Of a stretch of DNA of 64,000 nucleotides, positions 59,501 to 64,000 are shown one piece after another. Source of the DNA: Bispira polyomma (lineage: Eukaryota); assembly GCA_965649765.1 (NCBI GenBank), contig OZ287752.1, positions 35,402,001 to 35,466,000 on the forward strand. Reading direction: 5' to 3'. The stretch's first letter is position 1. Each line of letters begins with the position of its first letter. Both the position numbers and the translations under genes were made by a program. The notes beneath the pieces are model-generated. The model searched no databases, was not told where the DNA came from, and saw nothing but the letters and a program-made list of their open reading frames with translations.

Positions 59501-59725
59501 CTATGTTAGTATAGTGCTTGATACTATGTGCATTAATTTTCAGTTTTAAGTGATAAGGAAAGTCGCAATTCTTTGCGAGACTTGGAAATAACTGTTCTAT
59601 CATCGCCACAAAATTTGCTTACTTATCCCGACCAGACATACACACTCCAAATGCTAATTTGCCTGCTTAAAAATGCGACCTTTTGACAATTGCAGCAAAG
59701 TAGTCTAGTTACCATATTAAGCCTG

Positions 59726-60844
59726 TGTAACAACCCTGTTTAGCCCAGCTGACCAAATTAAGATATAAGTCTCAATAAAGTATCAGTTCGCGTTGTGTTC
59801 AAATAGGCAGGTCGCCAGATAACAGATTCGTATAGGCAAGGTCACCGAATAAGCTGGGGGTTATTGAAGCCTGGATCAATAAGCTCATCAAAGATGACTT
59901 TTAATTACAAATTAAGAACAACAAAATTAACTTCAATATGTATATTATAAATCAAAAAGTGTACATATAATTATACGGTACAATAACCCGGAAAAACAAC
60001 AATATAAATGCACCAGTCCTGTGTACTTATATAAATTTAAGACAGCTAGGTGGCAGTGGCAAAATACCAAGAACAACACTATATATTCTACAATTAATGT
60101 CAGCCTATTTAATGACAGTCTATATAGTTCAACAAGCTAGGCCTGACAAAAAAAAAACATACCGCCTGACAAATATTCAAGTTACATTATAATAAACACC
60201 TAGACCGGCGATGCAAGGCAGCAAATTACATGTGTCTATATGAGTAATTATTAATTACTATATCTCACAACTAAAATATACCACAAGTTGTAAGAACTGT
60301 CAAAAACATGAGGTTTTGTTGATCAACAAAAAGGGAGGGAAAACCCCCAATCTGACAATAATTAGCAAATAAATAGCAAAACCTCAATTAAATTGGATAA
60401 AAGTTACACACTATATTTGAATACATTAATGACATAAATTAAGAGATTTGGAACCGAAAAGAATGAACTGAACCGGAACCGGAACTTCGGGATGTGAATC
60501 GGCTGTTTCCGGAAGAAAAAGCCCCCCACAATGCATCACTCGGCTCGCGAAATGGCCTGAACACCGCTCGGAAGACACCGCCCTAATAGTAAACAACACC
60601 GACCAGTGTATATATAAGGTGATGACGTCATCACAAGATGGCGGATCTCACTTCCGAGAAAATATTGCAAAACAGATGAAAATGCTGCGAATTTAGTGAA
60701 TGACAACCTTATTTTGAAGTAAAATACTAGTATATACCTAACAAACTAGCAATTTACCAATTCTCGCTTCATAACTTCCATTAATAAGAGATATATCGTA
60801 AGCACGAGTCTCCAATTAGTACTCGCGATGACTGGGTCATCACA
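59726..60844 (-). repeat. Putative 3' LTR (~1.12 kb)
   Basis: Begins TGTGATGACC immediately after the PPT and ends GGTTGTTACA (imperfect terminal inverted repeat). The 5' LTR is outside the window, so the distal boundary is inferred. Confidence 0.7.
60609..60644. promoter_or_regulatory. LTR U3 promoter-like cluster: TATA-like run, 16-bp CRE-core palindrome, YY1-like motif
   Basis: TATATATAA (60609-60617), GTGATGACGTCATCAC (60619-60634), AAGATGGCGG (60635-60644). Confidence 0.55.
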
Positions 60845-60857
60845 CTCCCCCCTGCTT
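60845..60857 (-). other. Polypurine tract
   Basis: AAGCAGGGGGGAG on the - strand, directly before the LTR TG. Confidence 0.85.
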
Positions 60858-61417
60858 ACACTCTGTTATGCCCTCATAACAATAACTCACTAAAACAGCT
60901 GACTACATGCCCAAAGTGGCACCTCTATAATTACATAAAAACATTATGTACTACATATATATATATATATATATATATCATTAAAACATAATCAATACTG
61001 ATATTTAGTTGTTCATAAAAGTTCATAAATCACAATTAAAAATTGTAAAATGTCCATTAAATCTGAAAAAGAAAAATGTGACTTAATCCAAGTCAATAAA
61101 ACATTAAAAAATGTAAAGTACCCTTTATACAACTGCACTATAAGGCATTTAATGACTTGGAATACATCACTTATCTGTTCTCTTGAAATACAGATACTGA
61201 CAACATAGTAATACTGTTAAAATGCAAAATTTGAATAAAATAAGTGATAAATAAGTGTCCTCGTGTGACACTATAAAAGGTTAAACTTTTGACATCTGTC
61301 AAAAGTGTAACTTGACATTTAAAACATTAATACTTGACATGAATTTTGAAATTTTGGTAAATACCCCATTTTAGAAGTGAAAGAAAATAATATAAATCCC
61401 CCCAAATTTAACTAAAT

Positions 61418-62350
61418 TTATTCTTCCCCCAAATTAAGACAGTCTCCCAAAACCATTTCCTGATAACTGAAAGTATCGACATCGTCCAAAACACTCTTGC
61501 CCTTTACCATTTGTCCTTTCAACTTCCTGATCTCCTCCTCCATCCTCCGTCTTTCAGAACGTTCTCCCTTAAGTTGCTCTGTCAATCCTTTCTCCCTTAG
61601 TCTTTGTTCTTTTACCTCCAGCTTCTTTAATTTGTCCTTTGCACACTTTTCCTTCTGTGACCAGAACTTCATTTTTTCCTTGGCCAACAAAATGTCTCTG
61701 ATCAGCTTTTTTTTTTCTTCTGTTTCTGCTGTGCTCAGACATGCACCTACTCTCCCGGCATGTGGCTCTGGGACATCTGGCAACATTGAGTGGTCTTGTT
61801 CTTCAAGGTGGACTTCCACATCTGTTTCTAATACATCTTCTTTTGTAATTTCGACTTTTACAAATTTGGGGTCGATATCCATAACGGATTGGCATGGCAC
61901 TGTCTCCGAAATGATCGGCTTGTTAGTGCCAGCCACCGACTTTGGCTTTGGACCCACAAATTCTCCTGGGTTAAGATATGTTTTATTTGCCACAATTTTC
62001 ATTCTAAGGTTCTCCCCTGAGCTTGAAACTTTGGCCTCAGTAACATTTAAATGATGTATTTTGACCAGATGTCTTTCCAGGTCGTATGGCCTTTTGAATG
62101 TCCTACAAGAAGTGCCTGTGGTGCACTTGTACAGTGTAATGAAGGGTGAGTGGATATCAGCCCAGTGCCTGCTTAAGGCAAACTTCTGTCCAAAGGACGT
62201 ATTACGGCGTAGACAGTCTGGTACCAAACAGCTGTACCTTCCTCCACTCTTGTTCCAGCCTCGTTTGGCGATGACCTCGGCCCCTCCACCTTTCTCATCC
62301 ATCTCATCCTCAAAGGCTCCCAAATCGAATACGAACTCGTTGACAGACAT
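61418..62350 (-). CDS. Retrotransposon accessory ORF (env position): two C2H2 zinc fingers, acidic linker, coiled coil, 310 aa
   Basis: C-x4-C-x15-H-x4-H (CLVPDC...RHWADIH) and C-x5-C-x11-H-x4-H (CTTGTSC...RHLVKIH); K/E-rich heptads at about aa 210-280; AAAACAAAATG start context; upstream splice acceptor. Confidence 0.85.
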   Translation of the reverse strand: MSVNEFVFDLGAFEDEMDEKGGGAEVIAKRGWNKSGGRYSCLVPDCLRRNTSFGQKFALSRHWADIHSPFITLYKCTTGTSCRTFKRPYDLERHLVKIHHLNVTEAKVSSSGENLRMKIVANKTYLNPGEFVGPKPKSVAGTNKPIISETVPCQSVMDIDPKFVKVEITKEDVLETDVEVHLEEQDHSMLPDVPEPHAGRVGACLSTAETEEKKKLIRDILLAKEKMKFWSQKEKCAKDKLKKLEVKEQRLREKGLTEQLKGERSERRRMEEEIRKLKGQMVKGKSVLDDVDTFSYQEMVLGDCLNLGEE

Positions 62351-62410
62351 TTTGTTTTACTGAAAACATAATACAGAAAAAAATATTAGGCTGTGTACTA
62401 CACCTGAGCC

Positions 62411-64000
62411 CTAATATTCCTGCCCTAAACTGACTTGAACTGATTTATCACTATAGTCACCCTGTAATAACCAGCTAACTGGAGTATCACTGTGAGAATA
62501 GTTCTTAATGTGGTCTATGTGTACAGTAATAGGCTGAGAATTTTCCTCTTTTTGTATTTGATAATTGAGTTCTCCTAGTTTAGAAATCACCAAGTACGGA
62601 CCTTTCCAACCCCGACCAAATATGTCCCTATTGTCAGGTGGATAAAAGACCCACACCCAATCACCTCGCCTGAAGCTTCGTGTCTGAGTGTTCATGTCAT
62701 ATGTCCGTTTTTGTCTGACAGCACTTTTGTGTAAATTGTCTCTAGCTATCCTATAGGCAGTTTGCATGGAGTTCCTGATCCATTCTACGTACTCAACAGG
62801 ACATGTGGAAACCTCAGAACCCATTTGTCTGTCCCCGTACAGGATATCTACAGGTAACCTTACCTCCCTTCCAAACATAAGAAAGTTTGGAGTAAAGTTT
62901 ATACTTTCTTGTATAGTCGATCTGTAGGCTAAGAGTAGGTACGGCAAGTAATCGTCCCAGTCACTCCCGAAATCACTCACTACAGCCCTTAGTAACTGTC
63001 TAATTGTCCTATTCATTCTCTCAACCAGTCCGTCTGATTGTGGTCTATAACGTGATGTTCTAGTCTTTTCTATGTCAAGTAACCTACACATTTCCTTAAA
63101 AAGTAGCGACTCATAATTTCTACCTTGGTCTGTATGAATCACCAGAGGGACACCATATCGGCAAACCCATTGTGTAACAAGTATGTCAGCCACTATTTGT
63201 GCAGTCTGATCTGGCAAGGGATATGCTTTCACATACTTAGTAAAGTAGTCCACTACCACTAGAATGTAATTATTCCCATTCTTACTTGTTGTTACAGGAC
63301 TGTCAAGGGGGTTACCTACTAACTGTTGCTTAAGGGGAGCCCTTTTTGGGTTATGACCTGCCTTATAGCTTTCACAAACCTTACAAGTTTGACACGAACT
63401 GACTATATCCCGTTTGAAACCTGGCCAATAGAACCTACCACGAAGGCTACACACAGTCCTCCTGACCTCAAAATGACCACTAGTTCTTTTACTATGCAGT
63501 TGCTCAAACAGCTGCTTCCTAAAGCTTCCTGAAACGACATACTGCATTACTTGGAACTTCACTAGAATTACCAGGAACCCATTTTCTATACAGAATACCA
63601 TCCTGAATGTCTAACACTGACCACTGAGCACAAAGAGCCTTATATTGCCTACTATGCCCACTGATTTCTGCTTTCTGTGGTTTATCACCTCCAGCAGATT
63701 TAAGTTCTAAGAGTTTACTGATATCATCATCTTGGTATTGAAATTGCCTCAACTCATCAAGTGACCACCTATCAGTCCAATTACTCTGTTGGGAAGTTTT
63801 AGCCTTATTTCTACCTGTAGCATTATATCTGCAGCCAGTCCTACTTTGAGTAGACTCATTGTGTTTTACACCGGAGTCCAAGGAACCACCTAACCCAGTC
63901 CCAGTCGCTATGCTGGGACCCCCACTAAACTCATTAGTGCTTGTAAGGGTCCTACTCCCCTGGGTTTTAATGTCCCCCCTTAACCTGACTACGTGTAACT
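62411..64000 (-). pseudogene. pol: Gypsy pol 3' part: RNase H-integrase linker and integrase, frameshifted near 63550-63570 and with an internal deletion
   Basis: Open frame VTRSQ...QYQDDDI...DGILYRKW from the window end shifts into LH...GH...YWPG...CQTC, VVVDYFTKY, HTDQGRNYES, PQSDGLVERMNRTI and WKGPY. Confidence 0.92.

Follow-up and report, generated by a model that had tools for sequence, protein, structure and literature searches.

LTR retrotransposons are thought to depend on host transcription factors, and self-encoded regulators are a mark of complex retroviruses, with CERV of the Cer1 element as a rare retrotransposon case. As described in the accessible part of the source, CERV is a non-Env 3′ ORF of a Gypsy element of Caenorhabditis elegans, expressed from a spliced mRNA; its 517 aa include a Cys-rich, possibly C4, finger, coiled coils and a ring-forming domain, and the protein exports RNA, regulates the expression of its own element and has no obvious homology outside Caenorhabditis (PMC10309623). 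Foamy viruses, which are retroviruses with an internal promoter, encode the transactivator Tas 3′ of their structural genes, and Tas binds and activates its own LTR, according to the available sections of the source (PMC12789967). In errantiviruses this position is occupied by env, expressed from a spliced subgenomic RNA, and its start can come from an upstream exon, either as a short peptide exon or as an AU dinucleotide (PMC12992720, PMC13524379). Family-specific ORF3s located after pol have been described in LTR elements of bdelloid rotifers and also in Penelope-like elements; the types comprise GDSL esterase, DEDDy exonuclease, coiled-coil and transmembrane proteins, and in the accessible portion of that paper the words 'zinc', 'C2H2' and 'finger' have 0 occurrences (PMC5408684).

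The element described here runs past the end of the window, the whole stretch of 64,000 nt of Bispira polyomma DNA that was analysed; all window coordinates below refer to minus-strand features. It is a full-length, tRNA-His-primed element of ~10 kb, and its LTRs and target-site duplication (TSD), gag-pol order, primer-binding site (PBS) and polypurine tract (PPT) identify it as a Ty3/Gypsy LTR retrotransposon (Metaviridae). The 3′ LTR (59726..60844; 1119 nt, TG...CA) is directly preceded by the PPT (60845..60861) and bordered by a 4-bp TSD (59722..59725) with one mismatch (CAAG against CAGG), and the TSDs of four other copies are exact, at 4 or 5 bp. The Gypsy integrase frame (62408..63610, stop codon 62410-62408) combines H2C2, the rve core and a GPY/F-type C-terminus, Pfam reporting H2C2, rve and p58 C-terminal domains, and upstream of it a pol fragment in another frame occupies 63519..64000. 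Past the window end follow gag-pol, the tRNA-His PBS, an 18-nt match to the 3′ end of the host tRNA-His plus CCA, and the 5′ LTR (about G000:C5:35470483-35471733), which contains a TATA box and the donor candidate AAG/GTACATCC, where the slash marks the splice boundary. The LTR pair is 98.4% identical (1099/1117 aligned bases), and a 110-nt block of the 5′ LTR, with a second TATA box and the donor candidate, is missing from the 3′ LTR. In the window copy gag and pol are interrupted by stops and frameshifts and the third frame, ORF3, is open; Pfam on a family-B copy whose pol is open gave the order of gag followed by PR-RT-RH-IN. Among the closest pol relatives that have names are Pinctada imbricata proteins (58%). 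Assignment to the chromoviruses was rejected, as the integrase stops before ORF3 and Pfam reports no chromodomain. An Rfam search gave no match. Elsewhere in the window, 50662-52718 contains broken LINE-type RT frames.

A U5 motif, CACAACGCGAA (59787..59797), is complementary to the anticodon arm of the host tRNA-His and constitutes a candidate second primer-annealing site. Complementarity of 11-13 nt to this arm recurs in the LTRs of families A-E (defined below), the motif matches the genome 172 times and its reversed control 6 times, and it was not found in unrelated His-primed elements. This pattern suggests two-part primer binding.

ORF3 (61418..62350) encodes 310 aa from an ATG at 62350 to a stop codon at 61420-61418, within a stop-to-stop frame of 62356-61418, and the PPT lies ~560 nt downstream. 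The initial annotation had reported exactly such an uninterrupted 310-aa ORF inside the element, before PPT and LTR, and had correctly placed it on the strand of the integrase; the gap between integrase stop codon and ORF3 start measures 57 nt. Two C2H2 fingers and a long coiled coil, both noted earlier, were recovered in a protein that comprises an acidic N-terminus, the double finger, a linker modelled with low confidence by AlphaFold2, the coiled coil and an acidic C-terminus, the two ends carrying net charges of -6 and -7. The finger Cys and His residues are nearly invariant across 45-50 aligned homologues, the Pfam C2H2 match being weak for the window ORF3 (E 0.22, below the cut-off) and above the cut-off for family D, and the long helix spans aa 207-289 (61484..61732). 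A SUMO-consensus VKVE proposed from the single sequence did not hold up: of the first 20 alignment rows just 7 retain its Glu, and KVNF or KVQF stands at the site in several homologues. The reported absence of Env features stands, with a maximum Kyte-Doolittle 19-mer of 0.52, no RX[KR]R motif and no signal peptide. An errantiviral identity was likewise rejected, ORF3 having no Baculo_F match where the control L141 matches at 6e-23. True Baculo_F env genes of this genome belong to a separate tRNA-His-primed lineage (L129, L141, L142, L144), in which most of RT seems to be missing from L129, L142 and L144.

AlphaFold2 modelled the double C2H2 module together with its C-terminal NxxY/FxxP tail (61937..62269, aa 28-138) at a pLDDT of 95.8. 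The best fold match is the Tramtrack fingers on DNA (PDB 2drp; Z 6.3, rmsd 1.5, 63 aa), although a Z this modest is also reached by common arrangements, and function does not follow from a shared fold; CTCF (Z 5.5), Kaiso and ZFP57 fingers are also among the neighbours. Tramtrack and ORF3 have in common the geometry of two tandem C2H2 fingers plus an extra N-terminal strand, at ~25% identity, whereas ORF3 adds a helix, a strand and the NxxY/FxxP tail outside the match and, unlike Tramtrack, has no BTB domain. On this model, ORF3 is predicted to contain a Tramtrack-like double C2H2 module. Full-length fold searches returned no match at E ≤ 0.001, only generic long helices.

Self-pairing of the C-terminal region was predicted with a score of 0.54 against 0.00 for the best control, the runs agreeing in at least 96% of contacts at a pLDDT of 79. 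The pairing mark appeared in 21 of 30 pairs and 0 of 23 single chains of a microbial benchmark and in 17 of 29 pairs and 0 of 30 single chains of a eukaryote benchmark; in animals it marked 7 of 16 pairs, and 1 of 7 without an older relative. The contact pairs 216-241 and 227-227 imply an antiparallel register, with a predicted homodimer interface at aa 202-255. ORF3 is therefore modelled as an antiparallel coiled-coil dimer, a predicted arrangement that could bridge two sites.

The host genome contains 131 matches to ORF3. Locus checks covered the 30 best loci and a selection of 40 regions, with some overlap, and placed the ORF directly behind the integrase in 63 of these 70; the remaining 7 show no upstream pol match, or a deletion or insertion between the two. 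One family C copy stops after the integrase, without ORF3 and without a 3′ LTR. Six families were distinguished in this genome, with identities to the window ORF3 of 90-97% (A), 57% (A2), 45% (B) and ~30% (C and D/E). Of 20 weak genome matches, several were discarded because they belonged to a Penelope-like ORF or to ordinary finger genes of the host. Beyond this genome, ORF3 has 66 protein matches at E ≤ 0.001; none of the 10 clusters looked up was named, and the database searches gave no named match to set beside CERV. The sole outside case that could be placed came from a single-protein scan: a metagenome contig of another organism (L186) encodes a 360-aa homologue (30% identity) in the layout Gypsy integrase C-terminus, acceptor, ORF3 homologue. 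Alignment-based scans of metagenome and viral contigs yielded no ORF3 relative, the ESM Atlas only generic C2H2 clusters below 0.9, and a search for longer fused forms of ORF3 one generic finger protein only.

The initial annotation had named loss from other copies, neutral decay, a one-off capture and a separate insertion as grounds on which its claim would fall. Other copies keep the ORF after the integrase, and six families in this genome together with the same layout in the unrelated contig L186 make it no isolated event; a host gene or separate insertion was rejected, since ORF3 sits inside both LTRs. Taken across these copies, the sequence evidence indicates that a Gypsy LTR-retrotransposon lineage has conserved ORF3 as a third gene. 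Where synonymous sites are unsaturated, pairwise ORF3 dN/dS is 0.19-0.36; between families synonymous sites are saturated, and ORF3 pN is 0.17-0.47, about twice that of the integrase. Shared variants have a lower pN/pS than singletons in ORF3 (A 0.26 vs 0.53, B 0.44 vs 0.56, C 0.14 vs 0.39) as well as in the integrase (0.58, 0.25 and 0.18 vs 0.80, 0.71 and 0.53 for A, B and C); within-family pairwise dN/dS of the integrase was left out, owing to out-of-frame stretches and different copies. Given this difference, selection acts in the replicating lineage, and the ratios indicate that ORF3, rather than decaying neutrally, is under purifying selection, as is any element gene. The ORF3 and integrase trees both split (A,B) from (C,D,E), E grouping with D in the former and being weakly placed within that group in the latter. 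This agreement indicates that ORF3 co-diverges with the integrase, families A-E being one clade and so not independent.

Family C copies near contig starts (G000 C3, C7, C8, C11, C13, C15; 80-215 kb) are near-identical and probably represent subtelomeric duplications. A decayed family C ORF3 at L104:6446-7100 shows the first Cys pair of finger 2 grown into a long CTK tandem repeat.

An integrase search extended the comparison to 20 sister loci (L146-L165) of about ten families, with integrases 40-58% identical. Each of the 20 carries Cys/His fingers in a 3′ ORF, which is broken in some, and in an unrooted tree the sister families join A-E in a group separate from the env-bearing and Gmr1-like controls (support 87/94). 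The ORF3 profile scores 7 of the 20 sister ORFs at E 1e-5 to 1e-7, values that generic fingers could give. Most sister 3′ ORFs lie behind an acceptor-like tract and several have no ATG; four families share a CxHG...CxxC end in place of the coiled coil. One sister Gypsy family (L162, L165; G000:C3:35131284-35141283 and C8:57648590-57658589) has LTRs of ~270-310 nt that enclose a 3′ region of very large size, in which a TatD DNase domain (Pfam 4e-39) accompanies a single finger; no paper in the literature searched combined TatD, gypsy and LTR retrotransposon. A further retroelement family (L111, L114, L118-L122), which we take from its motifs to be Penelope-like, has a conserved ~279-aa two-finger C2H2 ORF right after the RT frame, with no homology to ORF3 beyond generic fingers.

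A splice acceptor is predicted at 62360..62385, where a pyrimidine tract ends in an AG at 62361-62360, 9 nt before the ATG. The strength attributed to it from the sequence is borne out by comparison, as it ranks first in pyrimidine content among 56 YAG sites of the 7.7-kb element body (sites without AG in the preceding 18 nt), and in 60 of 74 loci scanned the ORF comes after an acceptor pattern specific to its family. In family C, ATG GCA GAG directly follows the acceptor AG. Families D/E start the frame at AG/GCAGAG without an ATG of their own, and an upstream exon ending in ATG is therefore predicted. The LTRs contain such a candidate: ATATG/GTAAA stands ~120 nt behind the TATA box in 5 of 5 D LTRs scanned and ATATG/GTAAATAT ~135 nt behind it in the E LTR, the D and E LTRs having just one 24-nt blastn match in common. 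Joined from LTR to acceptor, D/E would read MAEEI, like the MAEVN of family C. Families A and B share AG/GTACATCC at LTR position ~433, ~57 nt behind TATA, and the alignment of their LTRs opens exactly at this donor with a 250-nt block that is 67% identical. By an approximate donor matrix, D LTRs contain 6-8 further donor candidates, some of them stronger, and family D has an internal Met 16 codons in. Three sequencing runs are DNA-like, with even cover and raised LTR depth; they contain no acceptor junction and are uninformative on expression. From the missing ATG of families D/E and the ATG/GT donor in the LTR we infer that ORF3 is likely made from a spliced RNA joining a short LTR exon to the acceptor behind the integrase.

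Residues at the base-contact positions of the fingers allowed a DNA target to be predicted. Across 45 aligned rows, finger 2 has Arg-1 in 34, Asp3 in 31 and Arg6 in 25, and the counts for finger 1 are 36 for Arg6 and 19 for Ala3; all three finger-2 residues occur together in 12 of 37 single-module proteins vs 1 of 39 modules of long array proteins. In these long proteins the same double-finger module is repeated in tandem (P0014, 17 copies; P0028, 9; P0017, 4; P0042, 3), in most cases lacking Arg/Asp/Arg, and no specific Pfam family was found in those scanned. By the recognition code, the predicted specificity of the ORF3 fingers is GCG-GTN, of which GTN is the reading that we presume for finger 1. 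For GCG, the accessible parts of the sources pair RSDDLVR with this triplet in a design table and include a RADR/GCG crystal complex.

Of all 1,024 5-mers, CGGTG, a repeat that had been noticed ahead of the unbiased count, shows the strongest enrichment in the LTRs of A-D, with 17 sense matches in the four family LTRs against ~2.2 expected. It accounts for 21 of 240 CG-starting 5-mers vs 1 of 76 in control LTRs, these controls being CpG-poor (2-11 CpG vs 14-41 in ORF3-family LTRs), and hardly occurs in 7 control stretches taken from unrelated His-primed elements. The matches cluster in U3 and around TATA, all in sense orientation in A and B and in both orientations in C and D, and the E LTR has two just behind its TATA box. 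Three repeats in the window U3 (60601-60597, 60580-60576 and 60566-60562) are candidate sites for ORF3 binding, and a CRE-like TGACGTCA occupies 60630-60623. In sister families G, H and H2, whose fingers read R-x-D-D-L, the repeats are TGCGGT or GGCGGCT. GCGG and GCGGT are not enriched in the A-D LTRs, and the 5′ G predicted from Arg6 is therefore not kept. Family M has no Arg/Asp/Arg, yet shows GCGG repeats (8 vs 2.4), as does family F (3 vs 0.6), and Asn3 in finger 1 of H predicts A where C is seen. We regard the CGGTG repeats as a lead to the ORF3 target, not a demonstration.

The initial annotation proposed a spliced, dimeric nucleic-acid-binding regulator rather than Env, a view supported by its fit with the acceptor and donor anatomy, the structural model and the dimer prediction; among the three functions it allowed (transactivator, RNA-export factor, anti-silencing factor), the evidence favours DNA binding at the LTR. 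On balance we lean towards ORF3 being a dimeric two-finger DNA-binding regulator of its own LTR, made from spliced RNA. LTR transcription would yield genomic RNA and a spliced RNA, and since the latter would skip the PBS, the ORF3 gene would work as a regulatory switch comparable in function to foamy-virus Tas. Repeats of the CGGTG type around the TATA box of the element's own LTR would be the target of the dimer, which, once bound, would raise or, less likely, lower transcription. Activation is probably the outcome; it is the least certain part and rests on the acidic and aromatic termini, the acidic ones resembling, as we assume, activation domains. A host factor could instead explain the LTR repeats, and U3 is also present in RNA, where the same repeats could be bound. 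That ORF3 is an export factor of the Rev/CERV kind, which binds unspliced genomic RNA and licenses its nuclear export, we consider unlikely. An element with donor and acceptor must get unspliced RNA out, and CERV, in the accessible account, sets the precedent of a multimeric protein with Cys finger and coiled coils from a spliced mRNA; the A/B block from the donor onward is a possible response element, the A/B repeats all lie on the sense strand, and TFIIIA-RNA is among the weak fold matches (Z 2.8). Yet the conserved residues occupy the canonical base-contact positions -1, 3 and 6, the C/D repeats occur in both orientations, for the most part in U3 and around the TATA box, and DNA complexes head the list of fold matches.

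Occupation of the same CpG-containing LTR repeats could also serve an anti-silencing or chromatin function, by which the LTR would be kept unmethylated, insulated, or repressed to limit copy number. CpG in every candidate site, the CpG-rich LTRs (14-41 against 2-11 in controls), the position of several sites on or just behind TATA, the CTCF, Kaiso and ZFP57 fingers among the fold neighbours and a KVxF motif in several homologues, which presumably recalls PP1 docking, all agree with this function; Pfam detected no chromatin-reader or enzyme domain, however, and the acidic termini look more activation-like, so that we hold it to be improbable. Tethering of the integration complex or cDNA ends to chosen DNA or to the nucleus would suit a predicted DNA-binding dimer encoded beside the integrase and co-diverging with it, and family C copies do cluster near contig starts. 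It is nevertheless very unlikely, given that TSDs are unrelated sequences, that the clustered copies, being near-identical, resemble segmental duplicates, and that the repeats lie in the promoter rather than at the LTR ends. Least credible is a passive captured fragment of a host zinc-finger gene, or an Env substitute. A host origin is plausible from the tandem arrays of the module (17, 9 and 4 copies) in long proteins, but the passenger reading is already largely refuted by purifying selection on shared variants and by retention of ORF3 while synonymous sites became saturated, and an Env substitute is opposed by the absence of a transmembrane segment, signal peptide and furin site.

If ORF3 regulates its own LTR as favoured here, the element would possess a self-encoded DNA-binding promoter switch, which was not found described for LTR retrotransposons in the literature searched, with positive or negative feedback built in. 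This would reverse the familiar picture of host zinc fingers silencing retroelements and would provide natural finger/site pairs, a claim testable with a 110-aa domain and a short oligonucleotide; solo LTRs with such sites could bring host genes under element control. More tentatively, there may be a large invertebrate Gypsy lineage whose members each encode their own spliced C2H2 transcription factor, with helices co-evolving with the repeats of their own LTR; in the one genome surveyed, the lineage comprises six ORF3 families and about ten sister families with other finger ORFs.

Non-Env third ORFs are thus already known from CERV and the rotifer ORF3s, and it is a C2H2 ORF3 that was not found described in the accessible texts. 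Mollusc, annelid and metazoan env surveys reported none in the parts available, in agreement with the initial annotation, which did not recognise ORF3 as a characterised family, within a search scope that lay outside Repbase (which may annotate the ORF), most subscription journals and supplements. ORF3 and CERV are alike as non-Env 3′ ORFs of Gypsy elements; by their descriptions, they are set apart by the two C2H2 fingers of ORF3, with DNA-type recognition residues and a predicted dimer, and by the greater length, ring-forming domain and possible C4 finger of CERV. Errantiviral env shares the position of ORF3 and, in drawing its start from an upstream exon, behaves as inferred for D/E ORF3, whereas ORF3 has no signal peptide, furin site, fusion peptide or transmembrane helix. 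To our knowledge, Tas is not a C2H2 protein, and it differs further from ORF3 in belonging to a retrovirus with an internal promoter. It is nonetheless the functional analogue of the explanation favoured here, regulation of the element's own LTR being shown for Tas and predicted for ORF3.
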